Shown here one piece after another: positions 7,845 through 28,503 of a DNA stretch of 64,000 bases (position 1 is the stretch's first letter; each line of letters opens with the position of its first letter). The position numbers and the translations under genes are program-made. Location: the sequence record PQ478073.1; one strand, given 5' to 3'. The notes beneath the pieces are model-generated. The model saw only the letters and a program-made list of their open reading frames with translations, was not told the DNA's origin and made no database searches. Source of the DNA: a phage.

Positions 7845-8507
7845 ATGTTAGTTAATCTTAATTTCATCACTTCACCTGACTGGGCATTACGTGGAGTTTC
7901 TTTAAACTTCAAGGAAACTATGTTTGACTACATTGGTGAGTGTACATTGGTAAATGCAACTTTTGATCCAAATCATCCGTTTTGGGCTGAAATTCATGAT
8001 CCAAATGTAAACAACAATACATCTGTTATGACTATTGTCCAGACTAAACATGCAGGTATCCTTGCAGGTTATCGACCTGCACATGCAATTGAACACTTCA
8101 CTGATTACGATGTCGTGGATGAATACCCAATGATCCATGAAGATGGAAGTCTATACACATCTGAAGACTTCCGTGCTATCTTTAATAGTACTGATGATAT
8201 TCTACCAAGTGGACGTCCACGTCCTGAGTCTTATCTTATGCATCCATCTTATGGTGTAGCAGATACGCTTGAACAGATTATGAATAAGTACAAGAACCTA
8301 ATTGAAGGTCCAGAAGAAATTGTCCTGTGCTATCACCCAGTACTGAAGTCTGAACAACCAAAGGATGGTGGATGGCGTTGGCATAAGAATGGTGAGTATA
8401 TCGGTACTAAACGAAGTAAAGAACGTTTTGAGTACTTGTATGATGAGCCAGATGTTGATGTGGTTTTGTGTTATAATTTTATTAAGGTGAAAAAGAAATG
8501 TATCTAG
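7845..8507 (+). CDS. hypothetical protein (220 aa)
   Basis: ATG 7845 with GAGGA RBS; track start 7827 is TTG. Confidence 0.55.
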   Translation: MLVNLNFITSPDWALRGVSLNFKETMFDYIGECTLVNATFDPNHPFWAEIHDPNVNNNTSVMTIVQTKHAGILAGYRPAHAIEHFTDYDVVDEYPMIHEDGSLYTSEDFRAIFNSTDDILPSGRPRPESYLMHPSYGVADTLEQIMNKYKNLIEGPEEIVLCYHPVLKSEQPKDGGWRWHKNGEYIGTKRSKERFEYLYDEPDVDVVLCYNFIKVKKKCI

Positions 8508-8740
8508 TACTAAGTTTTGTTGTTGCACTATTGTTTATGTTCTATCCTACACTAGTGGCATTAGCCACTAGACGAACGATGGTAGATCTCACTACTGTAT
8601 TCTTGCTAAACGTGGCATTAGTACTGGTGTCTATTATCATTCCAGTGAGCTTTACAGTTATTGATATTATTTCGGTATTACTCTTCGTGTTAAGTTATCT
8701 TATGCTTATTGAAGAAACAAATGTTGACAAACGTTCGTAG
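8498..8740 (+). CDS. small membrane protein (80 aa)
   Basis: Two predicted TM helices. Confidence 0.5.
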   Translation: MYLVLSFVVALLFMFYPTLVALATRRTMVDLTTVFLLNVALVLVSIIIPVSFTVIDIISVLLFVLSYLMLIEETNVDKRS

Positions 8741-8797: not shown

Positions 8798-9124
8798 ATG
8801 CTATCAGTACTAATTTCAATTCCGTCTTTAATTCTGATTTGGCTTCTGGTTTACGAATGCTTTATTACTGATGATAATGATAAAAAAGAGTTCTCTGAGT
8901 TGTTTATGCTTGATTCGCCGATTGTGCGTATTTTCTATACAGTCGTTGTGGTTTCAGTAATTGTATGGGTTTTGAGTTTTATCTTCCCACTCGGTGCAGT
9001 AGTTAAAACTTTGGATTTAGTTGAGAACTTTGTTGCAATTATGTGGCTAATCAAAGCACTATTTGCAGGAAATGTTAAAATTTGGATTGATATTATCAAA
9101 TTCAAGTTCACGAATAAGATGTAA
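8798..9124 (+). CDS. membrane protein (108 aa)
   Basis: GAGGT RBS; multiple hydrophobic segments. Confidence 0.55.
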   Translation: MLSVLISIPSLILIWLLVYECFITDDNDKKEFSELFMLDSPIVRIFYTVVVVSVIVWVLSFIFPLGAVVKTLDLVENFVAIMWLIKALFAGNVKIWIDIIKFKFTNKM

Positions 9125-9573: not shown

Positions 9574-9951
9574 ATGGTAAACACTATTTTACTTTTGTTG
9601 TTGAATATTCCAATTATTCTGTCTTTTTTAATTTCTATTTTTATGGCAGGATATTGTTTAGTTGCAGTAATTCATTTCATTTTAACAAACAAATATGTCC
9701 TAATTTCTAAGCTTGATTCTATTTTTGCTTGCGATTCGATTGCTTATAACTTGTGGTTAATTTGTTCTTGCATTATGGGAGTAACTTTCCTTCTGTATGT
9801 ATTTGATGTCCTTGACCAAAAGTTCGTATACATCAGTACTGGATTGGCTCTTTATCCTGCTACGTGGTACTTGATTTACGTTGGTGATATATGGTATAGT
9901 ACTTATAAAGAATATCAGTACAAGAAATCACTTAACGTTGGAGGAAAATAA
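9574..9951 (+). CDS. membrane protein (125 aa)
   Basis: Hydrophobic multi-TM profile. Confidence 0.5.
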   Translation: MVNTILLLLLNIPIILSFLISIFMAGYCLVAVIHFILTNKYVLISKLDSIFACDSIAYNLWLICSCIMGVTFLLYVFDVLDQKFVYISTGLALYPATWYLIYVGDIWYSTYKEYQYKKSLNVGGK

Positions 9952-10308: not shown

Positions 10309-10500
10309 ATGTTGATTTATCAAAGTGATAATATTCGTGTTATGCAGCATCCCTACTTACAAATCTTTGATGTGCAGCAGTATATGGAAGGTGATGACCC
10401 AAGAACCTATGGTCGTAAGTATGATTACTTCACTGTAAAGCAGTGTAAAAATATTAACGAAGTACGACAATTAGTTCAAGAACTTCAAAACAAAGGTTGA
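10309..10500 (+). CDS. hypothetical protein (63 aa)
   Basis: ATG 10309 just after upstream stop; stop lies in terminator stem. Confidence 0.45.
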   Translation: MLIYQSDNIRVMQHPYLQIFDVQQYMEGDDPRTYGRKYDYFTVKQCKNINEVRQLVQELQNKG

Positions 10501-10526
10501 CTTCGGTCAGCCTTTTTTGTTATAAT
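10493..10526 (+). terminator. terminator hairpin GGTTGACTTCGGTCAGCC + T-run with embedded -35 and downstream TATAAT
   Basis: UUCG tetraloop stem plus T6; TTGACT 10497-10502, TATAAT 10521-10526. Confidence 0.7.
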
Positions 10527-13946: not shown

Positions 13947-13975
13947 ATACTATAAATATAGTCATAGAGAAAAAA

Positions 13976-15529
13976 ATGAAATCTATGGAGAGAAATCAAA
14001 TGCCAAGTAATTTTACTGATAAAAATGGTGGTAACATGGCTGGTCACTCTGATAAATGGAGTGAACGCAACCGCCGTCCAAATAGTTATCAAGCAGGTCA
14101 AGGTTCACGTGGGTCACGTAATCAAGGAACTGGTCTAGCTGGTAAAGCAAACGCAGAAGCAGGTGAAGTTAAGAGTACTGAGAACATGACTGAGCTAGAA
14201 AAGCTACGTTATGTTAATTCATTGGGACTTCTTAATGCTACACAAAAACAACGTCTAGCTGATATGGAACGTGAAGAAAAAGAAAAGTCTGCTCCTGCGA
14301 AAGAAGAACCAAAACAAGAAGCACCAAAGGCGGTTAACCCTGTCAAAGAACTGTCTGATAAGTTAGGTAAGATTTTTGCTAATAAACCACAACTTATCCA
14401 AGGTATTGTGAAAGAATTGCAATCTGTACCTAAAGAAGAATTAAAAGTCAAAGCACAAGCTGTACTTGATGCAATGAGTGGAAATACCAGTACTGAACCA
14501 ACTGAAGTATTCAGTACTATAATGCGTGCACTTGAAGGTACGCAACAAGGTGATGTGCCTGCACAAGAGGAAGTAAGTCTTGAAAGCGTACTTAAAACAT
14601 TTGATAGTATTGGTAAAGAAGACCGTGCTAATGCTCAACAAGTTAAGAATGTACTAGCTAAGTTAGAAAACCGTCTGGAAGGCAAAGACGATAAGATTAA
14701 ATTAGTATCTGATGCAGTTAACGATGCACTTAAATCTTATGTACAAGGTGAAAAGAGTCGTTTTGTAACTGCAATGGATGCTGCATTCAATACTATGAAA
14801 AAGTATGAAGCTGATCATGGTGAGAAGGTTACACGAGATGGTTATCTGATGCGTGATGATGAAGAAGGTGCAGTTGACCAGAAAGATGCTGAAACATCTC
14901 ATGATGATTTACCTGATACTGTTGATATGGATGGTTACATTCATCGTCCAGAAATGGGAGAGTTTGGTTCTGACAAAGAAGGATTTGAACATGCAATGGC
15001 AGTGTACAAAGCTCTCGTGGACAATCCAGATTATGCCAACCGATTTGTAGATGAGTTTGATAGTGCATGGAACAACTACAAAGACAAAGGTTATGACTTC
15101 CCTGCTGAGGCAGCATTCTTTGAACTTGGTAAACTATTAGCTAAACATGGAATTGATGTAGGTTCTAAAGATGGTACTGATACTGATGGCATGGAAGCAG
15201 AATTGGCTAAAGATCGTGAAATGAACGACAACTCCATTCATGAACTCCAAAAGCTAATGATGTGGATATCCGATATTGGTAAAAAAGCTGGTGCTGATAA
15301 TAAGAGTATCAACAAAAACATTAGTTGGATTAAAAGTAATGTTGGTAAAAATGCTCGTAAACTACAAAAAGCATGGACTGATTTAGTAAATGGTGCTGAT
15401 GATGTTGACATTGAATCACCTGAAGCATACGAATATGCATTAACTACTCTTGATAATTCCTTTAAAGATTACGATAACGGTAACGTAACTCCTTGGGAAA
15501 AGGACATCATGAGCAAATACGGTAAATGA
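13976..15529 (+). CDS. large acidic/lysine-rich protein (517 aa), unknown function
   Basis: Longest ORF in the block; low-complexity charged composition. Confidence 0.65.
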   Translation: MKSMERNQMPSNFTDKNGGNMAGHSDKWSERNRRPNSYQAGQGSRGSRNQGTGLAGKANAEAGEVKSTENMTELEKLRYVNSLGLLNATQKQRLADMEREEKEKSAPAKEEPKQEAPKAVNPVKELSDKLGKIFANKPQLIQGIVKELQSVPKEELKVKAQAVLDAMSGNTSTEPTEVFSTIMRALEGTQQGDVPAQEEVSLESVLKTFDSIGKEDRANAQQVKNVLAKLENRLEGKDDKIKLVSDAVNDALKSYVQGEKSRFVTAMDAAFNTMKKYEADHGEKVTRDGYLMRDDEEGAVDQKDAETSHDDLPDTVDMDGYIHRPEMGEFGSDKEGFEHAMAVYKALVDNPDYANRFVDEFDSAWNNYKDKGYDFPAEAAFFELGKLLAKHGIDVGSKDGTDTDGMEAELAKDREMNDNSIHELQKLMMWISDIGKKAGADNKSINKNISWIKSNVGKNARKLQKAWTDLVNGADDVDIESPEAYEYALTTLDNSFKDYDNGNVTPWEKDIMSKYGK

Positions 15530-16613: not shown

Positions 16614-16621
16614 TAATAAAA

Positions 16622-16646
16622 GGGTTGACTTCGGTCAGCCTTTTTT
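16622..16646 (+). terminator. terminator GGGTTGACTTCGGTCAGCC + T6
   Basis: Hairpin family copy. Confidence 0.7.
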
Positions 16647-16682
16647 GTTATGATGTTGATATTAACTACAGAGGATAAAGTA

Positions 16683-17324
16683 ATGACTAAGCAAGAAATA
16701 TTCAAAACTTTAATTGACATTTTGCGTCCATCAAAAACTCGTTGTGCGATGGAGTTTGATATTCCTTATGCTGAACGCGTAATCTTTCCACAAGTTAAAG
16801 CTGCTGGACTTACTTTGCTTGGAATGGGGATGTACTCTGTAGTAGTTGAACATAAAAACTATCCTGGGCGTGCATTTAAAGTAACCACTTCACGCTGGGA
16901 TGGTTTTCGTGCTTATGCAAAGTACTGCATTGAAAACGCAGGAACCAAGTTTCTTCCAGTGATCTACAGTGCCAACGAACAAGGAAACTTTGGATGGTAT
17001 GAGATGGACAAGTACTATCCTATAATTAAACAAAAAAATAATTATGATGACTTTGTTAGTACTAAAATTGGAGATTTGTATTCGTATGCACATGCTGGTC
17101 AGTACGCAACTTCAGTGAATGATATGCGTGGAAATTCTGAAGAGATTGCTATTGCAACGGTCGCTGCTAACATCATGAAAGAGTTTCACGGGCGTTTTGT
17201 ACCAGACATTCATTCAAGTAATGTGATGATGGATAAAGATGGGAATGTATTCATTACTGATCCTCTTTCGTGTGATGTGCGTAGAGAAATACCAATTACT
17301 GAAGAAGATCCAGTTTTTTATTGA
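16683..17324 (+). CDS. protein-kinase-like protein (213 aa)
   Basis: GAGGA RBS; catalytic-loop-like DIHSSNVMMDKDGNVFITD. Confidence 0.45.
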   Translation: MTKQEIFKTLIDILRPSKTRCAMEFDIPYAERVIFPQVKAAGLTLLGMGMYSVVVEHKNYPGRAFKVTTSRWDGFRAYAKYCIENAGTKFLPVIYSANEQGNFGWYEMDKYYPIIKQKNNYDDFVSTKIGDLYSYAHAGQYATSVNDMRGNSEEIAIATVAANIMKEFHGRFVPDIHSSNVMMDKDGNVFITDPLSCDVRREIPITEEDPVFY

Positions 17325-17385
17325 CAGAACTGATGTTCTGATGTATTCTTAATAAACCATAAAAATTGCGGTAAAGGATAAAATC

Positions 17386-17667
17386 ATGCGTTCATTTGAA
17401 AACTTAATAGGTAAGCATCTTTTATCTGAAATTGATGCAGACGTTAAAGAATTATCCAAATCAAAAAGTTACATTCATTTGGATGAACTGTTTATTAAGT
17501 ACGGTGAGATTGGTTTTAAGTCATTATTTGTTTTTACTATGAAAGTACATAGTTTAAAGTACTTCGATTTGAGTGCTAAAGATGGTGAACCGAATCTATA
17601 TTACATGTATTACCTTAAGAACAAAGATGAAGCTAATACATTACTCTCTGAATATATATTGGGGTAA
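17386..17667 (+). CDS. hypothetical protein (93 aa)
   Basis: AAAGGA RBS. Confidence 0.5.
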   Translation: MRSFENLIGKHLLSEIDADVKELSKSKSYIHLDELFIKYGEIGFKSLFVFTMKVHSLKYFDLSAKDGEPNLYYMYYLKNKDEANTLLSEYILG

Positions 17668-17669
17668 AA

Positions 17670-18008
17670 ATGGAACAATATTTTGAATTAATAAACAAAG
17701 TATCATTTTATGTAGTATCTTTGGTTTGGGTGTATTATATGTTTTGCTACATTATTGCATTCTTCCGATACACTACTTTATATGAACGTATCTACTATGA
17801 TGCCCCAATTTCATTCTTGATGTTTTGTGCATGTACGTGGGGAATATTAGAAGTACTGATATGTGGGTATAGTACTGATGAATTAAATCTGGTATCGGTC
17901 TTGACTGGGTTTTCATTTGTTGTTATGATAGCTGCCGTTCCAGTATGGTTGTTCTTTGGACTAGTTCATCGCATTGATATATGGCGTTCTAATATCCCTG
18001 AAAAGTAA
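17670..18008 (+). CDS. small multi-TM membrane protein, family M (112 aa)
   Basis: Hydrophobic; C-terminus RSNIPEK matches family tail. Confidence 0.55.
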   Translation: MEQYFELINKVSFYVVSLVWVYYMFCYIIAFFRYTTLYERIYYDAPISFLMFCACTWGILEVLICGYSTDELNLVSVLTGFSFVVMIAAVPVWLFFGLVHRIDIWRSNIPEK

Positions 18009-18017
18009 GGATTGGTA

Positions 18018-18359
18018 ATGATTTATTACACTAACATGTTTGCCTATGCTGTTGCTTGCATTTACATTGTTTACTTCTTATTCGGTGGAGTACTGTGCTT
18101 CTTTAAGTACAAAACGTTGTTCAACCGAATGTACCCAAATCATCCAATTGTAGTTGTACTTTTGATTCTTTCAGTTTCTCAAATAATCGTTGAAACTACA
18201 ATGGGTATCAGTAGTGTACATTATAGTTTTGGCACTATAGTAATTATTACTATGCTTATTGCATACATTTTAGTACTTGGATATGGTATCTTTGGTAATA
18301 TTGGTATGAAAATGTATCATCGAATTAAAACATTACGTGATAATCTACCGGAGCGTTGA
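18018..18359 (+). CDS. small multi-TM membrane protein, family M
   Basis: AAGGA RBS; C-terminus RDNLPER. Confidence 0.55.
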   Translation: MIYYTNMFAYAVACIYIVYFLFGGVLCFFKYKTLFNRMYPNHPIVVVLLILSVSQIIVETTMGISSVHYSFGTIVIITMLIAYILVLGYGIFGNIGMKMYHRIKTLRDNLPER

Positions 18360-18360
18360 T

Positions 18361-18705
18361 ATGTATAATTTGAACCTAATCTCATATATTATAACAACAC
18401 TGTTTACATTCTATGCCTTTGTTGGTATAATCCTACTGTACTTTAAATTTTATAAAGTGTTTAACCGTTTCTATCCTTCAATGGAGAATGAGTTTTTCTT
18501 TGTGTTGTACGTAGGTTACACATTAATGGCTACATGTTTCACTGTAGCCGATGGCGTCATCGGCATTAAAACTGATTCCCCAAATGGTAGTACGCTGGTT
18601 GCATTTATTCTTACTGGATTCCTTGCAACTTATATTGCCTTCATTACAACATGGTCAGTGGTTGAATTTCTCTTGCGACTACGAAAGAATATGCCGAATC
18701 GATAG
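18361..18705 (+). CDS. small multi-TM membrane protein, family M
   Basis: ATG 1 nt after upstream stop; C-terminus RKNMPNR. Confidence 0.55.
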   Translation: MYNLNLISYIITTLFTFYAFVGIILLYFKFYKVFNRFYPSMENEFFFVLYVGYTLMATCFTVADGVIGIKTDSPNGSTLVAFILTGFLATYIAFITTWSVVEFLLRLRKNMPNR

Positions 18706-18714
18706 GAGACATAT

Positions 18715-18969
18715 ATGTTTGCGTTGCGTAATAAAAACACTAAAGAATTATTATGTATTGATACCGTATGGGATTGTGCGGGATCAACTACAGTTCTTGA
18801 AGAAGGAACTGGATATTGCGTGTTTGTTGTTCATGATAGGAATGAACTCGAATTATTACTTGCTGAGTTCAATGCTGGTGGTAATCCTAACAGTACTGAA
18901 TACCCTGAGATTATCAATCCAGCACCACCAGGCTCTTATGAAATTCTACAACTGTGGGAGTTGAAGTAA
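18715..18969 (+). CDS. hypothetical protein (84 aa)
   Basis: AGGAG RBS. Confidence 0.5.
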   Translation: MFALRNKNTKELLCIDTVWDCAGSTTVLEEGTGYCVFVVHDRNELELLLAEFNAGGNPNSTEYPEIINPAPPGSYEILQLWELK

Positions 18970-19349
18970 TGCGTCAAATGCACAAAGTAACCGAGCTAAA
19001 CAAGCGTCTGGTTAAACAATCAATGTTCGAGGATAAAGAGTCTTATTATAACTTTAAACGTGCAGTAGAGGCTGCTATCCACATTCAGAAGCTTAAAGAA
19101 CGTGGTTGTATTATTCTGGAAAATGGTTCGGAAGTTGTAACGGATGACTTTAGTGTAGCGTTTGATGTTTCACCTGACGGGACGCTATCAATGCCCCGCT
19201 TAGGAACTGGAAACATGACTGTTTGGGTTGGCTTCACTATGGGGAATGTACCTGGTACTGTGTACGTAGATGATGCGGAATTGAAAGACAGTTTCAAAAA
19301 CTTATCTTATCTTGAACCACAATACGCACATGAAATGAATTTATTTTGA
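18969..19349 (+). CDS. hypothetical protein (126 aa)
   Basis: ATG 18969 with GGAG RBS. Confidence 0.5.
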   Translation: MRQMHKVTELNKRLVKQSMFEDKESYYNFKRAVEAAIHIQKLKERGCIILENGSEVVTDDFSVAFDVSPDGTLSMPRLGTGNMTVWVGFTMGNVPGTVYVDDAELKDSFKNLSYLEPQYAHEMNLF

Positions 19350-19351
19350 GT

Positions 19352-19379
19352 TGACAAACACATTCAGTACTGTATAATG
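19352..19379 (+). promoter_or_regulatory. promoter TTGACA-N16-TATAAT (AGTACTG-TATAAT type)
   Basis: TTGACA 19352-19357, TATAAT 19374-19379. Confidence 0.6.
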
Positions 19380-19425
19380 CTTATCAAGGGGATGAACTTC
19401 TCATCCCTACAATCGAGGAACTACC

Positions 19426-19980
19426 ATGATTACTTTTAAGAAAACTGCTAACCACATCCATGAAATCTACATTAACGGTCACAAAGCTGGCCTTCTTCGT
19501 TTACTCGCCCATCATCCTGATGTTACCGTATCTGATAATGAACCTAAAGATTGGCGTGTATTTTTCTTTGGAAAGTACAGTGATTTTCAAGTATCAAACC
19601 TGAAGAACATTCGTTCAGTATGCACGTTAACTGAAATTAAAGAAAAGTTAGAAAAAGCATTGAAAACTAATCCAGATGGTGTTCTTCCACCTGATAACTT
19701 TGTAGAGAAAGGTTATGCATTAGCTCATTTCAAAGATGGTACTATTCAATCTATCAGTACTGAATATGAATATCAATGGACTGAGTACTTCACTTATGGA
19801 TCGCGTAATACATTGATGGCTTCACGTAGTAAATTGGAAGAAGTACTGACTCGTATGAATGAACGCGAACGTCAATTTTATGACAAACCAGAAATGTGGA
19901 GTTCAACTTACATTGACCGTATTGACTATGTTATTATGACTCCAATCTTTGACACTGCTTACTATGATTCTTTGAAATAA
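19426..19980 (+). CDS. hypothetical protein (184 aa)
   Basis: GAGGA RBS. Confidence 0.6.
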   Translation: MITFKKTANHIHEIYINGHKAGLLRLLAHHPDVTVSDNEPKDWRVFFFGKYSDFQVSNLKNIRSVCTLTEIKEKLEKALKTNPDGVLPPDNFVEKGYALAHFKDGTIQSISTEYEYQWTEYFTYGSRNTLMASRSKLEEVLTRMNERERQFYDKPEMWSSTYIDRIDYVIMTPIFDTAYYDSLK

Positions 19981-19991
19981 GGATAACTTAT

Positions 19992-20168
19992 ATGAAACTA
20001 CGTACTCGTAATAGACTGATGGATGCACTGTACCATGAACAGCTTTCACTGAATGAAGTGAAGCGTCAGTTAATGTACACATATCTGTTACCCGCTCGCA
20101 TTGCAAAACAACGTGCTAAAGAATTGCTGAAAGAAGCAATCGAGTACTGGGAATCTGATTCGTACTAA
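19992..20168 (+). CDS. hypothetical protein (58 aa)
   Basis: AAGGA RBS; below track cutoff; fills intergenic gap. Confidence 0.4.
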   Translation: MKLRTRNRLMDALYHEQLSLNEVKRQLMYTYLLPARIAKQRAKELLKEAIEYWESDSY

Positions 20169-20207
20169 TATTACGTGATATGTCACGTTAATTAAGTGAG
20201 GCGATAA

Positions 20208-20459
20208 ATGAAAATATTATTAGTTCTAATACTACTAATAGTTTTACCATTTACTTTAGTATCCCCTGGACTTGCATGGAATGTATTTGTGTACTTAGTA
20301 TGTACTATTGTAGTAAATGGTATCTTGTTCTTAGTTCTATTCATAAATGGAATAGGACACGGTGGAGGATGGACCAGTACTGCTGATATCGTACATAAAA
20401 CCACTATGTCTTTATTTGTAATGTGGAATTTGTTCTGGACTTGGTTTGTGTTCTTCTAA
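20208..20459 (+). CDS. small membrane protein (83 aa)
   Basis: GAGG RBS; hydrophobic. Confidence 0.5.
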   Translation: MKILLVLILLIVLPFTLVSPGLAWNVFVYLVCTIVVNGILFLVLFINGIGHGGGWTSTADIVHKTTMSLFVMWNLFWTWFVFF

Positions 20460-20467
20460 TTAAAAAT

Positions 20468-20839
20468 ATGAATATAGATTTGAAAGGTGCAACCCGAACT
20501 GTTATCCTCATTGGGGAATACGCTATCAAGATTCCAACCTTCAAAAGCTGGAAGTTATTCCTAACTGGAATGATAGCTAACCTCAATGAACGTTCATGGA
20601 TGCAGTACTCCAATCGTAGTGATAGTGGTATCTGCCCTACTTTGTGGTCATCATGTACAGGACTAGTAACTGTACAGAAACGTTGTAAGCCAGTTCAACA
20701 TAGGGGTTTATTTTGGGTGGAGTTGTGTGCTTTAGCATTGAATTCAGAGTTAAGTACTGACTTCTTTTATTCAGATGCGAAGCCAGAAAACTTTGGTTAT
20801 CTGAATGGTAAGTTAGTTAAACTTGATTATGGAGATTAA
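20468..20839 (+). CDS. mini protein-kinase-like protein (123 aa)
   Basis: AIK lysine motif, DAKPEN catalytic loop, DYG (DFG-like). Confidence 0.5.
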   Translation: MNIDLKGATRTVILIGEYAIKIPTFKSWKLFLTGMIANLNERSWMQYSNRSDSGICPTLWSSCTGLVTVQKRCKPVQHRGLFWVELCALALNSELSTDFFYSDAKPENFGYLNGKLVKLDYGD

Positions 20840-20840
20840 G

Positions 20841-21110
20841 ATGTACGCACTGTATAATAAAGAAAAGAAACGATTTGCTAAGGTTGAAATTTCGATTGAT
20901 ACCTTTGATATGTTGGAGTACTGTATTGTGACGGACCTATATGCTAACTTGTATTACGTTCTTGATGACGTATCAGTACTGCAACGATTGCTTGAGAATT
21001 CCAAAAGTCAATGCCAGGGCATCCATGATGGTTCATCTTATGAAACACCTGAGTGTTCCTACGGCTATCTGGACGGGTATGAGATTGTGAAGTTGGGGAT
21101 TGTTGAATAA
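20841..21110 (+). CDS. hypothetical protein (89 aa)
   Basis: ATG 20841 with GGAG RBS. Confidence 0.5.
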   Translation: MYALYNKEKKRFAKVEISIDTFDMLEYCIVTDLYANLYYVLDDVSVLQRLLENSKSQCQGIHDGSSYETPECSYGYLDGYEIVKLGIVE

Positions 21111-21116
21111 AGAAAA

Positions 21117-21149
21117 GGGTTGACTACGGTCAGCCCTTTTTGCTATAAT
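21117..21149 (+). terminator. terminator GGGTTGACTACGGTCAGCCC + T-run fused to promoter
   Basis: TTGACT 21120-21125 in stem; TATAAT 21144-21149; 18-nt spacer. Confidence 0.7.
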
Positions 21150-21177
21150 CATTTCATCGAAACGAGAGGATGAATAC

Positions 21178-21693
21178 ATGACACGCATTAACTTAGTACA
21201 CGTTAAAGAACTTGCTGACCAACATCTGATGGCTGAATATCGTGAACTCCCACGTGTATTTGGTTCTGTACAAAAACACGTTCAAGCACGTAAGCGTGTA
21301 CGTGATTTCAAAATTAACAGTACTTACCTGTTGGGTTCAGGTCATGTAACATTCTTCTACAACAAGTTATTGTACTTACAGAAGCGTCATATTGATATTG
21401 TTAACGAATGTTTGCGTCGTGGTATGAAGATTCAAAACACTGAAGTAAACGACATTAGCGGATTCCCTGCTGAGTTTTGTAATGACTACGTACCATCGGA
21501 GTCAGAGATTAAAATGTCTCGTGATCGTTTGATTGAGAAGCTCCAGATGAAGCCTACGTGGTATAAGTTTACTGATGTTGAATGTCCACAGTACGTTAAA
21601 GATATGCAGAACGTAAGTAGTAAGAACGAATCTAGTACTGATATGTTCGACGAAATTGAAGAACAAATCAAAGATGAAATGAATAATTATTAA
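21178..21693 (+). CDS. denV: endonuclease V, pyrimidine-dimer DNA glycosylase (T4 DenV homologue)
   Basis: [29 protein letters not shown]...RVRDFKI...[10 protein letters not shown] matches T4 DenV from memory; GAGGA RBS. Confidence 0.85.
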
Positions 21694-21699
21694 AGGAAA

Positions 21700-21716
21700 G
21701 GATTGACTTCGGTCAC
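21700..21716 (+). other. degenerate copy of the TTGACT hairpin element (no T-run)
   Basis: GGATTGACTTCGGTCAC. Confidence 0.3.
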
Positions 21717-21731
21717 ACAAAGGAACATAAC

Positions 21732-21926
21732 ATGTTATTAGTATATTCAAAGCGTTTCTGGATTTCTTTCATTGTACTTTCGCTAATCGGCTTCGGTGTG
21801 AGTATAATCTTTTCGTGGGATGAATTGGGTACATGGTATTATGAAGTTCCGTGGTACATGAAGATAGCTCCTTGTTATGCGGCATTGTTCGTGTCATTCC
21901 TTATTGTTGTCTTCAGCGAGGATTAG
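21732..21926 (+). CDS. small membrane protein (64 aa)
   Basis: AAAGGAA RBS; two hydrophobic segments. Confidence 0.5.
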   Translation: MLLVYSKRFWISFIVLSLIGFGVSIIFSWDELGTWYYEVPWYMKIAPCYAALFVSFLIVVFSED

Positions 21927-22032
21927 TTGATGTAGTATGTGCTACACCAAAGTATTTGGATATTTTAGATATAAACATTGACACCTGTTCTATCTTTCTG
22001 TATTATGTACATCACCAAATGAGGAATACAAC

Positions 22033-22392
22033 ATGGCATCTTTAAGTGAAATCGCAGAATACAACCCACTAACAATCTCAACAATTCAACGTACAAAAAC
22101 TTTTTATTTCCGTCCTGCTGATGGATGGAAACGTGGAATGAATGGTGACTATCGAGTACTGGAAGATTCACTAATCGAGCGTATCAACTCTGAACTACAG
22201 AAGTATGAAGGTGTTAAAGTTGTGCGTTCAACTTCTCGTTATTTTGAGTACTACATTGAGTCTTCAACTGTAAATGAAAACTCATCATTATCGGTGGACA
22301 ACACTGATATTCTTCGTAATGCAGTTGGTATGTTATGCAACATTGCAGAAGAAATGGGATTAACTATTAGTACTATGAGTGAGTTAGAATAA
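22033..22392 (+). CDS. hypothetical protein (119 aa)
   Basis: GAGGAA RBS. Confidence 0.55.
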   Translation: MASLSEIAEYNPLTISTIQRTKTFYFRPADGWKRGMNGDYRVLEDSLIERINSELQKYEGVKVVRSTSRYFEYYIESSTVNENSSLSVDNTDILRNAVGMLCNIAEEMGLTISTMSELE

Positions 22393-22398
22393 CATAAA

Positions 22399-22431
22399 GG
22401 GTTGACTTCGGTCAGCCCTTTTTGCTATAAT
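22399..22431 (+). terminator. terminator fused to promoter
   Basis: TTGACT 22402-22407; TATAAT 22426-22431. Confidence 0.7.
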
Positions 22432-22457
22432 CATTTCATCAACTCAAGAGGCAACAC

Positions 22458-22691
22458 ATGAAACTATCTTTTATACGATTGGCTGAATTCTTTGGTACTG
22501 ATGTAATTACTCTACAACAAATCGCAGATAATACATCATTAACTACACAAGAAGTACTTGACTTAGATGTAATTCAGTGCGATAATACTTCCATCGATTA
22601 CAAAGAAGGTCTTGTCGAAAAAGATAAGATTCAAGCTAAAATTAATGGTGCTGGACGGGTTCAGTACTGGAAAGGAGTTTTAAGTAAATGA
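22458..22691 (+). CDS. hypothetical protein (77 aa)
   Basis: AGAGG RBS. Confidence 0.5.
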   Translation: MKLSFIRLAEFFGTDVITLQQIADNTSLTTQEVLDLDVIQCDNTSIDYKEGLVEKDKIQAKINGAGRVQYWKGVLSK

Positions 22692-24112
22692 AAATTTATA
22701 TTGATAAATTTGGAACGACTTATGAATATTATGATTATACACATTATAATTCATATATACAAAAAAATCATAACCAAATGTCACCTTATTTGCATTATGA
22801 AGATTTAATGGAACTATTCTCTAAAAATGTAAATTCTATTAAATTTATTGGTTTTAAAGATCCAACATGGAAAAGTTCACATACGCATGTGTATTTTGAA
22901 TATGATAATATGGTATATGAACATTCAATATCAAATATCAAAACAAAATTCGCTGATCATAGATATAAACCAGGTAGACTATGTAGAACCTTGGAACAAA
23001 TTATAAATGAGTCCATTTATATATTTAAAAAATATGATAAATTTAATTTTCATAGCATTGCATCATTTAATGGAGCACGAACTATAATCAATTATACAAT
23101 TGAAGGACGTGAAAGAATATTTTCTATATCATTCAATTCATTAATAAAAGATTTTAAAGGGGGAAGCCCATGTTATTCATATGAAGAAGTAGAAAATATA
23201 TCTATAAAAAAATTAAATGAACATAATTTGAGATTTATCTCAATTAGTAAATTTAATGGTGTGTTTAGTTGTATTGAATATGAACAACCAACTCAGAAAG
23301 GAAAAAAATATGTTGATTTTAATATATTAATCTATAATGAATGGAAAGGTAATCTACCGAATATAACTAATGAAGAGGTGAATAATCGAATTTCAGAAAA
23401 AATGAAAAAACTAAATATCAATGAATATGAAATTGTAGAATATAACAGTACTAGGAGCATGGTTGAATATACAGTTGATGATATTTCATATACAACTAGT
23501 TACGATAAGATTATGCATCCAACTTGGAAAGGTAATCCAAGATATACAAAAGAAAGAATAATAAAATTGTCGAAAAAATATTGCAAGGGTAAAAAATTTC
23601 AATTTAATAAAATAATTGGTAATGTTAAAGGAATTAATACTATCATTGAATTAGAACTTGAAAATGGTATGTTTATATATCCAAAATTTATACAATTAAA
23701 AGGAGGTTCTGACTTTAATACATCCACTGATGGTAAGATTTTAACAGAAATAATTTATCCTTTGTTCGACAATTATATCACACAAAAACGTTTTGAAAAT
23801 TGTAGAAATCCTGAAACTGGATACTTGTTGCCATATGATTTGTATGTTCCAGAATTTAATTTATTATTAGAAAAAGATGGAGTGCAACATTACAATCCAA
23901 CAGCATATTTTAATAAAACATATGAATCATATTTGAAATTGAGAGAGAGAGATGAATTTAAAAACAAATATGCCATATCAAATGGTTATAATTTCATGCG
24001 AATAGCAGATTATGAAGATCATGAAAAAATATTGAAATCTTTCCTTAAACTCATTGAAGAGAATCCAGGAAAGCAAATTGTGCAGATCTATGGTGAAGTA
24101 CAAATTATCTAA
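22688..24112 (+). CDS. AT-rich repeat-containing protein (474 aa); candidate nuclease or homing-type gene
   Basis: Very low GC versus neighbours; internal PTWK(G/S) repeats; C-terminal D...EKDG motif. Confidence 0.5.
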   Translation: MKIYIDKFGTTYEYYDYTHYNSYIQKNHNQMSPYLHYEDLMELFSKNVNSIKFIGFKDPTWKSSHTHVYFEYDNMVYEHSISNIKTKFADHRYKPGRLCRTLEQIINESIYIFKKYDKFNFHSIASFNGARTIINYTIEGRERIFSISFNSLIKDFKGGSPCYSYEEVENISIKKLNEHNLRFISISKFNGVFSCIEYEQPTQKGKKYVDFNILIYNEWKGNLPNITNEEVNNRISEKMKKLNINEYEIVEYNSTRSMVEYTVDDISYTTSYDKIMHPTWKGNPRYTKERIIKLSKKYCKGKKFQFNKIIGNVKGINTIIELELENGMFIYPKFIQLKGGSDFNTSTDGKILTEIIYPLFDNYITQKRFENCRNPETGYLLPYDLYVPEFNLLLEKDGVQHYNPTAYFNKTYESYLKLRERDEFKNKYAISNGYNFMRIADYEDHEKILKSFLKLIEENPGKQIVQIYGEVQII

Positions 24113-24119
24113 AACAAAA

Positions 24120-24152
24120 GGGTTGACTTCGGTCGGCCCTTTTTGCTATAAT
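24120..24152 (+). terminator. terminator fused to promoter
   Basis: GGGTTGACTTCGGTCGGCCC + T-run; TATAAT 24147-24152. Confidence 0.7.
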
Positions 24153-24180
24153 CATTTCATCAACTCAAGAGGATAAAGAC

Positions 24181-24951
24181 ATGACCAGAGAAGCACGCAG
24201 CATTCAAATTCAGAAAAACTTCAACTCCATGATGGTTGCTCTTGAGTGTTTGCTCGATGATAGCAGTACTGTAAAAAGTATGGTTGTCAGTGGTGCTCCT
24301 GGTGTTGGCAAGACTTACACCTTGTCCCAACGTCTCCAGATGGCTCATGACGCAGCAGAATGGAACGTAGCTACTATCAGTGGTAAGATGACTACTCTTG
24401 CTCTGTACGAAGTTCTGTACAAGAATCGTCACAGCACCAACGTATTAGTACTTGATGATATGGATAGCATCTTTGAATCAGAAGATGGTATGAACCTACT
24501 CAAAGCTGTTTTGGATAGTGGTAAGCGTACTGTATCTTATATGACTAGCTCTAAGTACTTGAGCACTAACGGCATTCCTAATAGCTTTGATTTTAATGGT
24601 CGCATCGTATTCATTACTAACAAAGATTTAGCGTTAGATGCTAAAGCTAAAACTAAAATGTCTGCTCATTATGCTGCTCTTATGTCTCGTTCTGTGTACG
24701 TGGATTTACAGATTCAGACTAAAAGTGATATCATGATTCATATTGAAAATGTAATGACTAAGACTAATATTCTTGCATCTAAAGGTGTTAACAGTAACGG
24801 CAGTAAAGCAATTCTGAACTGGATGTTAAAACATGAAGATAATCTTCGTGCACCATCCCTGCGTATGCCTTTGTTGATTTCAGCAGTATATAACAACAAT
24901 CCGTATGATTGGGAAGAACAATGTGAAAACTTGTTCCTTGAGAAAATCTAA
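24181..24951 (+). CDS. P-loop NTPase (AAA-like)
   Basis: Walker A GAPGVGKT; Walker B-like VLVLDDMD. Confidence 0.65.
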   Translation: MTREARSIQIQKNFNSMMVALECLLDDSSTVKSMVVSGAPGVGKTYTLSQRLQMAHDAAEWNVATISGKMTTLALYEVLYKNRHSTNVLVLDDMDSIFESEDGMNLLKAVLDSGKRTVSYMTSSKYLSTNGIPNSFDFNGRIVFITNKDLALDAKAKTKMSAHYAALMSRSVYVDLQIQTKSDIMIHIENVMTKTNILASKGVNSNGSKAILNWMLKHEDNLRAPSLRMPLLISAVYNNNPYDWEEQCENLFLEKI

Positions 24952-25018
24952 TTACATATGTTGACAGTACTACCATCGTGTAGTACTATAACTTAATATT
25001 CACCACCGGAGATACGAT

Positions 25019-25360
25019 ATGCTTGAGTTTTTTAATTCAGATACAATGCTTGGTATCACGCTAATTTACATGTTTGTATTTTTGTGTTATCATTCAATTG
25101 TAATTAGTCTGTGGTATTTTAAAAGGAAAATTGTTTTTAAATTGTATTCGGATGATAATGTAGTCTTAGTTTTATATAGTATTATCCAAGGTGGGTTTAT
25201 TTTATTTGGTGTGATGACATATGCGATTTACATGTTACAAATTGATAATACACCACACATTACACAATATCTTGTGTTTTCAGGTCTAATCGTGTGGTTA
25301 TTGGTGTGTACTATGTATTTTATTATTAAAGCTCGTGATAACTTTAAATGGGGATTCTAA
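25019..25360 (+). CDS. small multi-TM membrane protein, family M
   Basis: GGAG RBS; paralogue of next gene (MLEFFxSDTM). Confidence 0.6.
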   Translation: MLEFFNSDTMLGITLIYMFVFLCYHSIVISLWYFKRKIVFKLYSDDNVVLVLYSIIQGGFILFGVMTYAIYMLQIDNTPHITQYLVFSGLIVWLLVCTMYFIIKARDNFKWGF

Positions 25361-25698
25361 TGTTAGAATTTTTTAAATCAGATACAATGATTAGTATTAC
25401 TTTGATTTATCTTTTTGGTTTTTTCTTTTATCATGCACTGGTTGTAGTACTATGGTATTTTAAAAAGAAAATTGTTTTTAAACTGTATCCAGTGAGGAAT
25501 TCATCACTAGTTCTTTACACACTTGTTCAAGGTTTGTTTGCAATTGTTGGTCTTATGGCACACTTAATTTATTGTGCTAATCCTCACTTGAACTCAATCT
25601 CACAATATATTGTATTCTTTGGGTTGTTCATTTGGTTAGTTGTATACTTAATCCATCTCATTATTCATGGTAGAGATAAAATTCGCGGAGACTTCTAA
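25360..25698 (+). CDS. small multi-TM membrane protein, family M
   Basis: ATG overlaps upstream stop; N-terminus MLEFFKSDTM. Confidence 0.6.
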   Translation: MLEFFKSDTMISITLIYLFGFFFYHALVVVLWYFKKKIVFKLYPVRNSSLVLYTLVQGLFAIVGLMAHLIYCANPHLNSISQYIVFFGLFIWLVVYLIHLIIHGRDKIRGDF

Positions 25699-26045
25699 TG
25701 TTTGAAGCTTATCTTGAGTTTTTAAGGAGTAGTTCAGTTGCACATTCACTTGCAGGGATTATTCTAACAACTTATGTATCATTTTGGGTAGTTATGTTTC
25801 TAGGATGGTATTTTAAACGACAATTCTATAAACGTAATGGTGAAGATTTTATGAATTCTGCCATTAATCAATCGTTGTTTGCATCAACATTGATTGCATG
25901 TATTGTAGCAACACTCACAGGAAAGGTACTACCAGCTTTTTCCGCAGTTTACGGCACACTTGGGATGATATGTTTAACTTTTATATTGACCATTAAAATT
26001 TGTTGTGTTATGATTGAACTTCGAAATAAGATACCGGAGGAATGA
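25698..26045 (+). CDS. small multi-TM membrane protein, family M
   Basis: C-terminus LRNKIPEE. Confidence 0.55.
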   Translation: MFEAYLEFLRSSSVAHSLAGIILTTYVSFWVVMFLGWYFKRQFYKRNGEDFMNSAINQSLFASTLIACIVATLTGKVLPAFSAVYGTLGMICLTFILTIKICCVMIELRNKIPEE

Positions 26046-26380
26046 TGGAGTACTTTATTGATTTACTGCCGTGGTATATGAAAGTTAGTACCATGTACTA
26101 TATTATTAGTGCTGGATTCTACTTTCTGATGTGGTTCTTTAAACGACCAATTTCAGTATTCATCGCTGATAACATGCTGCAATTAAAATTACACGCATGG
26201 TTTGGTCTGGCGATGATTATGCCTATTATTCACTACTCAATGATTAGTAGAGGTTTCCGTTCTAATGGTGAACCAATTGTATTAGTATTCTATTGGGGTT
26301 CAACTATTGCATATGTAAGTTTGTTGTTGTTCCCAGTCGTTCATAAGTTACGTGCTAAAGTTCCTGATGCGAGGTACTAA
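26042..26380 (+). CDS. small multi-TM membrane protein, family M
   Basis: C-terminus LRAKVPDARY. Confidence 0.55.
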   Translation: MMEYFIDLLPWYMKVSTMYYIISAGFYFLMWFFKRPISVFIADNMLQLKLHAWFGLAMIMPIIHYSMISRGFRSNGEPIVLVFYWGSTIAYVSLLLFPVVHKLRAKVPDARY

Positions 26381-26694
26381 TGGATATAGTAACATTGATT
26401 TACACGTTGTATTCATTCTATTTCATTATGTGTTGGGTTGGATTTTTATTTGTACTCAAGATGTTTGATTATGTTGAAAAACAGATAAAAGAATTTTGTA
26501 TTCCTTTTATCGGTTCAACCATTATTAGTGTTTCTTGTGTGTATTTTTTGGTTTTTGATCCACCAGATAACACTGCAATGATTGACTTGATGTTACTACC
26601 AACAACTGTTACTTTTTTATGTAGTCTGATGCCGCCGATTAGCCGTGGACTAACAGAATTTAGACGCAATCAAAAGCGTAAACGAGGGATGTAA
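26380..26694 (+). CDS. small multi-TM membrane protein, family M
   Basis: Hydrophobic; basic C-terminus. Confidence 0.55.
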   Translation: MDIVTLIYTLYSFYFIMCWVGFLFVLKMFDYVEKQIKEFCIPFIGSTIISVSCVYFLVFDPPDNTAMIDLMLLPTTVTFLCSLMPPISRGLTEFRRNQKRKRGM

Positions 26695-27062
26695 TGGAAA
26701 TTGCTCTTATTATCTTAACTGCTATGCTGTTTATTAGTACTGTGGTTATAATTGGTAAATTCTTTTGTGTATCATTTTTAGAAACGGTATACGATGAAAT
26801 TGCTGATGATTATGAACTACAAGCCGGATTTTTCATTACGTATTGGCTTAGTTTATTTTGTCTAGTCATTGCTTGGATTTTACATATCTTTAAATGGGGT
26901 ATGGTAGACGGTGATCCTATTATGGCAATTATTGTTCTAGTGTTTGGTATCCTTGGTGGTGCAGTGCATAATCTAATGGTTATCTGGCAAACTGTTCAAT
27001 ATGTTTTGGTTCCCTATTTCGAAAAGATGCACAGTACAATTAAAAAACGTAAACGAGGTTAG
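26694..27062 (+). CDS. small multi-TM membrane protein, family M
   Basis: Hydrophobic; basic C-terminus KKRKRG. Confidence 0.55.
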   Translation: MEIALIILTAMLFISTVVIIGKFFCVSFLETVYDEIADDYELQAGFFITYWLSLFCLVIAWILHIFKWGMVDGDPIMAIIVLVFGILGGAVHNLMVIWQTVQYVLVPYFEKMHSTIKKRKRG

Positions 27063-27063
27063 T

Positions 27064-27426
27064 ATGAACGGGATAGAATTATCTTTCGTTGGTCAATTAC
27101 TAGTAATGGCGTATACATTTATCTTCTCACTGAATGCATTCGTGTGCATTGGGAAGTACTTCCATAAGCGACCATTATCAAATATATATGATGTAATCCA
27201 AAAGAGATATAGTCCAGCATATACTGTGTTGGGTACAGTATTCAATTTTGGTTTTATTGTATTAATAATTGGACTGTTCACATCCTCTTTGAATACAATA
27301 ACCTTCGGTCTTATGATATGTTCATTGGTATTAGCCGTAATTATATGTTGTTTAGTACTGCACCTTGTGGTACTATTGTATATAAAGATCTCTGAAATCC
27401 ACCAACGTTTGGGTATGAGGAAATAA
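27064..27426 (+). CDS. small multi-TM membrane protein, family M
   Basis: ATG 27064 with GAGGT RBS. Confidence 0.55.
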   Translation: MNGIELSFVGQLLVMAYTFIFSLNAFVCIGKYFHKRPLSNIYDVIQKRYSPAYTVLGTVFNFGFIVLIIGLFTSSLNTITFGLMICSLVLAVIICCLVLHLVVLLYIKISEIHQRLGMRK

Positions 27427-27427
27427 T

Positions 27428-27799
27428 ATGAGTTACCGTGAGATATTTTCCATTATTTCAATTATTATGTTCAGTACTGGAACACTGGTATGGTTATTAT
27501 ACTTCTTCTGTATTAATCCAGTGTATAATATGTTATGTAATATTAAATCAAGTGCCGGATATATCACTTTTATGGTCTTTATGGGATATTATTGTCTAAG
27601 CATTTTAGGTGTTGTTTTGGTTGTTATATTTGATGTGGGACCAAATAGTGATGGTATGGAAATACATGAATTAATAACCATGTTTGGATGTATGATACCA
27701 ACAGCACTACTGTTTGTAGCTACTGGTAGTGGATTGATAAAATTATATAATTATTTAAAATCCATTCATAATTCCATTCATAATAAGCGTATGTCATAA
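27428..27799 (+). CDS. small multi-TM membrane protein, family M
   Basis: Hydrophobic; C-terminus IHNKRMS. Confidence 0.55.
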   Translation: MSYREIFSIISIIMFSTGTLVWLLYFFCINPVYNMLCNIKSSAGYITFMVFMGYYCLSILGVVLVVIFDVGPNSDGMEIHELITMFGCMIPTALLFVATGSGLIKLYNYLKSIHNSIHNKRMS

Positions 27800-27805
27800 T
27801 AAAAA

Positions 27806-27827
27806 TCCAGTACTATCAAGTACTGGA
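27806..27827. terminator. palindromic hairpin TCCAGTACT-atca-AGTACTGGA
   Basis: 9-bp stem built on AGTACT; weak T-tract. Confidence 0.35.
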
Positions 27828-27840
27828 TTAATAAGGAGTT

Positions 27841-28503
27841 ATGATGAAAACAAAATTAGGTTTGTTTTATAAAAATTATTTCGTTAAACAGCGTAAATTT
27901 ATAAAAAAATATTTCTTTGGTGAGAAGTCTAGTCCTATAATTTTTAAAAGACCAAGTTATAATACTTACTTAGCTGGTGCTAAACAGTCTAAGAAATTTA
28001 TTACTCTTTTAAATAAAAACAAAATTAAAGCTTCTTATGTTGAAACGAGAAGAAACTCATCAATAACTCCTGGTGATTTTATTGAGTACGGATGTTTCAA
28101 TATTAAGTATAATGATAATACATACTTTATGGATATTGATTGTAATACATCCAATCTTTTTAACATTGTAGTAAATCCATTAAAACAATATAATGTTTAT
28201 GGTGATTCTATTATCAAATTAATCAAAAACAAAGATGGCTTTGATTTTGAAATAAATGTTTTAGATGATAATTTTGACGAAGTACCCGTAAACCCTGAAA
28301 TCTGTGATATTTTAAACAGTTTAAAAGGTAGTACCTACAATATATCATCTGATTTAATGTTTCAGTACTCATTAATCCATAAAGATATTGAAAAGTATAT
28401 TGAATGTTCCAAAATTTTGAATTATCTTTACGATGAATTTAAAAAGAGTTCTAAAATAACCGCATACACTTTGTACAATATTCCTAAAATGGTGAATCTT
28501 TGA
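27841..28503 (+). CDS. AT-rich hypothetical protein (220 aa)
   Basis: AAGGAG RBS; 3' end overlaps convergent RCC1-like gene. Confidence 0.55.
   Translation: MMKTKLGLFYKNYFVKQRKFIKKYFFGEKSSPIIFKRPSYNTYLAGAKQSKKFITLLNKNKIKASYVETRRNSSITPGDFIEYGCFNIKYNDNTYFMDIDCNTSNLFNIVVNPLKQYNVYGDSIIKLIKNKDGFDFEINVLDDNFDEVPVNPEICDILNSLKGSTYNISSDLMFQYSLIHKDIEKYIECSKILNYLYDEFKKSSKITAYTLYNIPKMVNL

Follow-up and report, generated by a model that had tools for sequence, protein, structure and literature searches.

Two tandem arrays of genes for small three-helix membrane proteins in an Asteriusvirus-type jumbo coliphage and their possible role in phage conflict

Organization of the two arrays

A 64,000-nucleotide (nt) stretch of phage DNA (record PQ478073.1; hereafter the window, meaning the whole stretch analysed) comes from a jumbo coliphage of the Asteriusvirus type, 121Q/PBECO4 group, and carries two tandem arrays of genes for small membrane proteins. 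Array A consists of three genes at 17670–18705 and array B of eight genes at 25019–27799, all on the plus strand. The region 17000–28000 is 98.6% identical to Escherichia phage BAU.Micro_ELP-22 (ELP-22) and 95–98% identical to other Asteriusvirus jumbo phages, including 121Q, PBECO4, G17 and Sharanji. All eleven genes carry the label "hypothetical protein" in ELP-22 and the other Asteriusvirus relatives. A sequence-only reading of the window had proposed two tandem arrays of small multi-pass membrane-protein paralogues, which is borne out here, all eleven members falling into one family. Its estimate of hydrophobic proteins of about 105–125 amino acids (aa) agrees with the 104–123 aa obtained from the open reading frame (ORF) listing and translation. 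The starts of A2 (18018), A3 (18361), B2 (25360), B4 (26045) and B7 (27064) were corrected to the GenBank annotation of near-identical phages. The genes are as follows (TM, transmembrane; E, expect value; AF2, AlphaFold2; pLDDT and pTM, predicted local distance difference test and predicted template modelling score).

17670–18008, plus strand: A1, 112 aa, three TM segments, tail WRSNIPEK, type I motif FFR...R; phrog_19285 at E = 3.9e-59
18018–18359, plus strand: A2, 113 aa, three TM segments, tail LRDNLPER; annotated start
18361–18705, plus strand: A3, 114 aa, three TM segments, tail LRKNMPNR
25019–25360, plus strand: B1, 113 aa, three TM segments, WYFKRK...ARDNFKWGF; recent duplicate of B2; phrog_19454
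25360–25698, plus strand: B2, 112 aa, three TM segments, WYFKKK...GRDKIRGDF; 28% identity to its RaK2 homologue
25698–26045, plus strand: B3, 115 aa, three TM segments, WYFKRQ...LRNKIPEE; AF2 pLDDT 78.5
26045–26380, plus strand: B4, 111 aa, MWFFKRP...LRAKVPDARY; RaK2_10657, 57 bits
26380–26694, plus strand: B5, 104 aa, GFLFV...FRRNQKRKRGM; RaK2_10996, 38 bits
26694–27062, plus strand: B6, 122 aa, type II GKFFCV...YD...MHSTIKKRKRG; AF2 pLDDT 95.8, pTM 0.82
27064–27426, plus strand: B7, 120 aa, GKYFHK...IHQRLGMRK
27428–27799, plus strand: B8, 123 aa, LYFFCI...IHNSIHNKRMS; RaK2_11648, 75 bits

A Shine–Dalgarno-like motif of the GGAG/GAGG type lies 5′ of each of the eleven genes, and all seven junctions within array B are either a 1-nt overlap or a 1-nt gap, suggesting coupled translation. 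Pairwise ratios of nonsynonymous to synonymous substitution (dN/dS) against phages ph0011 and BF17 range from 0.10 to 0.39 for all eleven genes; together with the Shine–Dalgarno motif of each gene, this indicates that they are real, selected genes. The arrays are under purifying selection, which is somewhat weaker than that on their neighbours.

A family of three-helix membrane proteins

Sequence comparison by profiles establishes that all eleven proteins belong to a single family. BLAST is significant for three pairs, namely B1/B2 (51.7% identity, E = 7e-37), A1/A2 (E = 1.5e-9) and A2/A3 (E = 1e-5), and for no other pair of array proteins. The within-array pairs had been called clearly paralogous; this holds by BLAST for these three pairs, whereas the others are joined through profiles, with B4 and B5 borderline. 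In hhalign comparisons of orthologue groups, B3–B4 reaches 95% (E = 6.7e-8), B6–B8 83% and B6–B7 72%. Weaker links connect A1 with B3 and B1/2 with B3, both at E = 1e-4, compared with about E ≥ 5e-4 for unrelated small membrane ORFs, and B3 is the member that joins array A to array B. In a leave-one-group-out test, in which a hidden Markov model (HMM) built from all other orthologue groups scores the omitted group, the omitted groups score 14–53 bits, whereas shuffled sequences score at most 12, reversed ones at most 9 and other small TM proteins at most 15. When the test is restricted to Asteriusvirus sequences, the groups A, B1/2, B3, B6, B7 and B8 are clear, the B4 and B5 of the window are borderline (9.6 and 9.5 bits, respectively), and the orthologues of these two proteins in phages A4 and JNE01 score 26–28 bits. 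B5 is the most divergent member and scores 24.5 bits in the broader test. The family HMM run on the window recovers exactly the eleven reported ORFs.

The sequence-only reading had named as its refutation a lack of significant similarity among the members beyond hydrophobic composition. The corresponding alternative is that the members are unrelated hydrophobic ORFs whose likeness is purely compositional. The lack of BLAST significance for most cross-pairs and the borderline scores of B4 and B5 in the strict profile test are what such an explanation would lead one to expect. However, in the leave-one-group-out test each group stands out from all three kinds of control (shuffled sequences, reversed sequences and unrelated TM proteins). 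In addition, 108 of 109 non-redundant family members have an invariant Phe and an Arg or His at fixed positions, and synteny of the arrays extends to other genera. The profile tests, the fixed Phe and Arg/His and the collinearity with phage RaK2 described below refute the compositional explanation, which we regard as extremely improbable.

Three signatures characterize the family. The first is [WK]-[FY]-F-[KC], with the invariant Phe, at what is predicted to be the cytoplasmic end of helix 1; the second is a frequent Y-D about 9 residues past the helix-1 motif, on a short helix; and the third is φ-[RH]-x-[KN]-φ in the C-terminal tail. The helix-1 Phe is present in 108 of the 109 members, and so is the tail His or Arg. 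It is established that the conserved residues cluster in loop 1 and in the C-terminal tail. The shared tail R-x-N-[IML]-P-[EN]-[KR] that had been proposed for the whole set is exact in three of the eleven proteins (A1–A3), nearly so in B3 (RNKIPEE) and B4 (RAKVPDA) and partial in B1/B2; it fails as a general motif, the tails of B5–B8 being of an H/R-x-x-φ-[KR]-rich form instead. The members fall into type I (A1–A3 and B1–B4; W-[YF]-F-K ... R-x-[KN]-φ-P) and type II (B6–B8; G-K-F-F-C ... H-x-x-φ-K-x-K-K), with B5 intermediate. The two motifs vary together: Lys in the first goes with Arg in the second in 26 members and Cys with His in 44, mixed combinations being rare. The top three covarying column pairs after average product correction all join the helix-1 motif to the tail motif. 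Such covariation may reflect a physical contact or may be a mere mark of subfamily history. The most variable parts of the proteins are helices 2 and 3, and close orthologues differ at 24–27% of sites in TM2 and TM3 compared with 10–11% in TM1 and loop 1.

A Kyte–Doolittle scan finds three TM segments in a common layout in 10 of the 11 array proteins. B4 exceeds the hydropathy threshold once only, and the same three hydrophobic blocks are found in its orthologues and in the family alignment. The AF2 models of B3 and B6 have three long helices; in the B6 model, helix 1 is followed by a G-K-F-F-C turn and a short helix, and helix 3 runs on into the basic tail. The array proteins are three-helix membrane proteins. 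The previous estimate of three to four helices is therefore correct for three, and the hydropathy scan and the AF2 models speak against four. Across the 109 members, loop 1 is basic and the C-terminal tail strongly so, whereas Lys and Arg are scarce in loop 2 and the N-terminal tail is acidic or neutral, Lys plus Arg being about 0 in the N-terminal tail, low in loop 2 and 0.8–0.9 in the C-terminal tail. This charge pattern, together with the hydropathy scan, suggests an N-out/C-in topology, in which the short acidic N-terminus would be periplasmic and loop 1 and the basic C-terminal helix cytoplasmic, thereby placing the conserved residues on the cytoplasmic side of what is probably the inner membrane.

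Class I holins of the lambda S105 type are proteins of about 100–130 aa with three TM segments; their topology is N-out/C-in, and their C-terminal tail is charged and basic. The array proteins share the size, the three TM segments, the predicted topology and the charged basic tail, which makes holins, antiholins or other lysis-timing proteins a candidate reading. However, they have neither sequence match to class I holins nor a dual-start motif, and they occur in eleven copies. The sole match to any Pfam holin family comes from 1 of 31 members at E = 0.54, which is not above noise. RaK2-like phages have a signal-anchor-release (SAR) type endolysin and no identified holin, which leaves room for such a role: the endolysin described in the CBB paper has a TM domain at its N-terminus, and the RaK2 paper finds no homologue of T holin or RI (PMC3622015). 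The parts of related genomes that match the 64-kb window have no annotated lysis gene. The endolysin of the group corresponds to gp532 of 121Q, whereas the arrays correspond to gp207–209 and gp224–232 and are not part of a lysis cassette.

Pfam searches with single proteins and with 31 members gave only sub-threshold matches, each Pfam family being matched by 1 of the 31. The PADLOC defence models gave 0 families for ten members at E ≤ 0.1, a sequence profile search of the PDB gave nothing below E = 0.09, and Foldseek against BFVD found no match; no specific fold relative emerged. In PHROGs, the family is split over at least nine entries (19285, 19454, 19046, 27396, 33258, 26405, 27618, 19792 and 16874), which have no assigned function, 19792 and 16874 being labelled merely "membrane protein". 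The window proteins and their relatives in RaK2 and Erwinia phage Hallingskeid match these entries at E values of 1e-43 to 1e-70. In a scan of ten members, B8 not included, eight match 19285, 19454, 19046, 27396, 33258 or 26405 over their full length (E = 1e-50 to 1e-70), and A3 (E = 2e-4) and B7 (E = 0.046) match weakly. The genes were thus already catalogued in PHROGs; what is new here is that at least nine separate PHROGs are shown to unite in one superfamily through common motifs, a common topology and synteny. Papers on RaK2, CBB and phAPEC6 and on the comparative genomics of jumbo phages contain no description of the family.

Distribution, gene order and promoters

The family appears to be limited to RaK2-like jumbo phages. 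Word-indexed searches of 5.8 billion proteins found no matches beyond close jumbo-phage relatives, and HMMER, run exhaustively over 1.84 billion cluster representatives, gave 82 clusters at E ≤ 1e-3, all but one of which are 89–138 aa long and matched over their full length. In every case with genomic context the genes lie in arrays: RaK2 has eight, Hallingskeid ten and a 324-kb metagenomic contig (L015) nine plus two, and two shorter contigs have at least three each. RaK2-like phage genomes carry 8–11 family genes each. In L015, two members at 1134–1478 and 2392–2748 adjoin a T7-like protein kinase gene, mirroring the position of array A, and the two-locus layout may therefore be old. The sequence-only reading had suggested a comparison of array size across genomes, which gives 1–3 copies for array A and 6–10 for array B. 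The B1/B2 pair is a recent duplicate, BF17, A4 and JNE01 having a single gene of this type, and B5 has two copies in JNE01 and is interrupted by a frameshift in 121Q.

The array B paralogues of the window map one-to-one and nearly collinearly onto RaK2 genes, B3 corresponding to RaK2 9594/9957, B1/2 to 10311, B4 to 10657, B5 to 10996, B6 to 11298 and B8 to 11648, so that the duplications are older than the genus split. A further conserved element is the gene upstream of array B.

24181–24951, plus strand: NrdC.10-like P-loop/AAA ATPase, 256 aa, about 38% identity to NrdC.10 of T2, T4 and T6, with AAA family matches

In six lineages an ATPase gene of this kind is found upstream of the array: immediately so in the window, Hallingskeid and L015, with one small gene between in RaK2 and locus L010, and three genes off in locus L012. 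These features raise the alternative that the paralogues are subunits of one early hetero-oligomeric complex of the inner membrane, for example a channel, a pore or a platform that the co-transcribed ATPase may serve, in which the conserved cytoplasmic face would be an assembly or ATPase-docking surface. The ancient, collinear paralogue lineages, the apparently coupled translation of array B, the association with the ATPase gene and the joint divergence of whole arrays in A4 and JNE01 would all fit a complex. However, array size and composition vary, B1/B2 and B5 are duplicated or lost, and 121Q is viable with a frameshifted B5. Furthermore, ATPase and array alleles are uncoupled: A4 has an ATPase of 96% identity and arrays of 25–67%, whereas ph0011 has an ATPase of 58% identity and arrays of 73–86%. 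T2 has NrdC.10 with no member of the family beside it, as judged by the family HMM, and the T-even phages likewise have none nearby. NrdC.9 and NrdC.7, which adjoin NrdC.10 in T2, were considered as members and are not recovered by the family HMM. We therefore consider a shared complex unlikely, though it deserves to be kept in view. In a more specific version, which seems quite unlikely, the paralogues would assemble into an inner-membrane machine such as a gate or channel. On its cytoplasmic face, type II members would offer a covarying Cys/His(/Asp) site that might bind a metal and cooperate with the adjacent ATPase, whereas type I members have Lys/Arg in its place; this would be an early membrane apparatus of a new kind, particular to RaK2-like jumbo phages.

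In Salmonella phage SD-1_S14 (OR699183.1, 148990–150052; locus L017), the B3 orthologue is a 29-codon remnant and the ATPase gene is apparently absent. Because many genes of this 310-kb record look truncated, the loss may be an assembly artefact, and it is not used as a natural knockout.

The arrays are probably transcribed early by host RNA polymerase, as suggested by promoter consensus and context. A 35-nt terminator–promoter repeat, AAGGGTTGAC-TTCG-GTCAGCCCTTTTTGC-TATAAT, occurs in the window in five copies at no more than 3 mismatches, where 0 are expected, and its core in 11 copies, all on the plus strand. It is built of an 8-bp stem, a UUCG loop and a T-run, with a −35 element TTGACT within the stem and a −10 element TATAAT 18 nt further on. 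The repeats and the other signals around the arrays are as follows.

10492–10526, 16620–16654, 21115–21149, 22397–22431 and 24118–24152, plus strand: copies of the terminator–promoter repeat with at most 3 mismatches over 35 nt
13738, 13921, 15540, 21701, 55729 and 59422, plus strand: further copies of the repeat core
16620–16654, plus strand: the repeat copy with −35 TTGACT and −10 TATGAT, in front of the T7-like kinase gene preceding array A
17321–17349, plus strand: sigma-70-like promoter, TTGACA-17-TATTCT, 10 of 12 positions, in the gap before the gene at 17386
24118–24152, plus strand: the repeat copy with TTGACT-18-TATAAT, 11 of 12 positions, which heads the unit of ATPase and array B
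24961–24989, plus strand: second sigma-70-like promoter, TTGACA-17-TACTAT, in the 67-bp gap directly before B1
27804–27829, no strand assigned: 11-bp perfect hairpin, CCAGTACT...AGTACTGG, just past the B8 stop codon, with no T-run on the plus strand

The gene at 17386 leads the tightly packed run 17386–A1–A2–A3. Intergenic gaps account for about 6% of the region and contain 8 of the 17 best plus-strand sigma-70 matches. The T4-type late motif TATAAATA is strongly avoided, with 2 copies in the 64 kb (13302 and 13951) against 14.6 expected, and neither is near an array; the copy at 13951 lies 25 nt before a 517-aa ORF at 13976 that is annotated as a virion structural protein in relatives. In phage CBB, a cluster of RpoD-like promoters ahead of a run of short ORFs has been read as marking an early region (PMC5259590), and the array region is homologous to this proposed early region. 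Relatives annotate an RNA polymerase sigma factor in the part that matches the window, and the presumed early block of CBB also has one, homology between the two not being assumed. The sigma-70-type promoters, the absence of TATAAATA near the arrays and the CBB parallel together point to early expression. Because the arrays have early-type rather than late promoters and lack a nearby lysis gene and a holin-family match, a holin role is disfavoured, and we consider it very unlikely.

The hyperplastic regions of T4-type phages contain promoter-early stem-loop (PeSL) cassettes. The present region resembles them in its runs of small, probably early ORFs parted by a repeated stem-loop and promoter and in its mosaic, cassette-like divergence; it differs in that the repeat sequence is particular to this phage group, and the comparison is one of description, not of sequence. 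The repeat may act as a cassette boundary for recombination. The hairpin after B8 may be the 3′ end or a stabilizer of the array B transcript. A second perfect hairpin, GTACTAC...GTAGTAC, lies between the promoter hexamers before B1 (24961–24995). Both hairpins, one at each end of array B, have an AGTAC core and may mark the limits of the array B cassette as a regulatory or processing signal.

Allelic divergence and candidate functions

The arrays are islands of divergence between close relatives. Compared with A4, JNE01 and Turkey5, the array proteins are 25–67% identical, about as distant as those of RaK2, whereas most genes between the arrays (19426–21693) are 87–100% identical. The exceptions are the gene at 19426, which is 78% identical in Turkey5, and some genes that are absent from at least one of these three phages. 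The family is thus both kept across genera and a marker of the most divergent islands between close relatives.

A conflict function best accommodates the combination of probable early expression, a place in the membrane, a copy number that is both dispensable and variable, and alleles that diverge extremely within otherwise near-identical genomes. Our tentatively preferred reading, to which we would give rather less than even confidence, is that the arrays encode conflict proteins that act early in the inner membrane, either in superinfection exclusion or in interference with defences. Superinfection exclusion, which the sequence-only reading had listed as a candidate role beside membrane remodelling and channel- or holin-like activity, is plausible on circumstantial evidence and fits the divergence islands. 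In the proposed mechanism, host RNA polymerase would transcribe the arrays early from the terminator–promoter elements, and the array proteins would be in the inner membrane of the host as early as the first minutes after infection. Target specificity would come from the variable helix 2–3 hairpin, and a common function from the conserved cytoplasmic face. The targets might be competing phages, which would be excluded, or membrane-acting defences, which would be interfered with. The family would diversify by duplication and by whole-cassette swaps between co-infecting relatives.

Imm and Sp of T4 are small early inner-membrane proteins of a large virulent myovirus, encoded in a plastic region with many small ORFs; Imm has two TM helices and Sp one, and each is a single gene. 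The array genes resemble them in encoding small membrane proteins, in being probably early and in lying in a plastic region, but differ in that their products have three TM segments, lie in arrays and show no sequence similarity to Imm or Sp. As to a possible mode of action, AcrZ, MgrB and KdpF are short membrane proteins that bind larger ones by helix packing, and the array proteins may act in a similar way; those proteins have a single TM segment and are not homologous, so the parallel is a functional analogy alone.

Several observations weigh against a conflict function. The six lineages B1/2, B3, B4, B5, B6 and B8 keep nearly the same order in RaK2, a pattern more suggestive of stable, non-redundant roles than of arms-race turnover. 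The high variability of TM2 and TM3 could be relaxed constraint. The divergence islands also extend over flanking genes for soluble proteins (17386, 18715 and 27841) and in some cases over the ATPase gene, so that they may merely reflect cassette recombination at the repeated promoter elements. No member shows similarity to a known exclusion protein in Pfam, PADLOC or the other searches, the Pfam families Imm_superinfect and spackle being matched by no member scanned, and the functional role proposed here is read from sequence. Furthermore, the promoters are predicted by consensus match, and the topology is predicted from the hydropathy scan and charge bias.

Another alternative is that the array proteins are host-takeover modulators, each paralogue binding and tuning or blocking a different inner-membrane protein of the host, such as a transporter, protease or respiratory complex, much as AcrZ, MgrB and KdpF do in bacteria, with no part in phage conflict. 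Small membrane proteins of an early region would suit this role, several distinct conserved paralogues fit several distinct conserved host targets, and the variability is concentrated within the membrane helices. However, the targets in E. coli are conserved, and an array identity of 25–45% is hard to explain between phages of the same host species that are otherwise about 96% identical. We therefore hold this alternative to be on the improbable side, and a conflict function continues to be our tentative preference.

RaK2-like jumbo phages (121Q, PBECO4, RaK2, K64-1, CBB and their relatives) figure in therapy-oriented work, and more than 80% of their genes have no assigned function. If the arrays do decide entry into, or survival within, an infected cell, this would bear on cocktail design and jumbo-phage ecology. 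If the alternative of a membrane complex is right, the arrays would encode a new organelle-like structure of phages. The definition of the family by its motifs and topology, the confident B6 model and the natural allelic cassettes make the function testable.

Other genes of the window are more loosely connected with the arrays. Directly downstream of array B and convergent to it, about twelve paralogous ORFs of 298–402 aa lie at 28484–41790 on the minus strand; they are annotated in relatives as RCC1-like "regulator of chromosome condensation" or as WD40_RLD beta-propeller proteins, and the same layout of array B and RCC1-like genes is found in Hallingskeid and two metagenomic contigs. A homing-endonuclease-like gene of 474 aa at 22688–24112, between denV and the ATPase gene, is 99–100% identical in ELP-22 and JNE01 and absent at this site in 121Q, ph0011, BF17, A4 and Turkey5, a patchy presence that points to mobile-element behaviour.

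Five small TM ORFs of the window were considered as family members and rejected, since the family HMM misses them. In hhalign against the family they stay at control level, except for a stray B4–M64 match at E = 4.8e-4. The ORFs at 8498–8740, 8798–9124 and 9574–9951 encode 80, 108 and 125 aa, respectively, with three predicted TM segments each, and neither hhalign nor the family HMM relates them to the family. The other two lie between the arrays and have two TM segments each. The 64-aa ORF at 21732–21926 is 95–100% conserved where present and is undetected in ph0011, BF17, A4 and Turkey5. Neither it nor the 83-aa ORF at 20208–20459 has a Pfam match above threshold or any similarity to T4 Imm, and the idea that the latter is an Imm homologue was dropped for want of Pfam support. 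Unlike the arrays, the 83-aa ORF is 95–100% conserved across Asteriusviruses.

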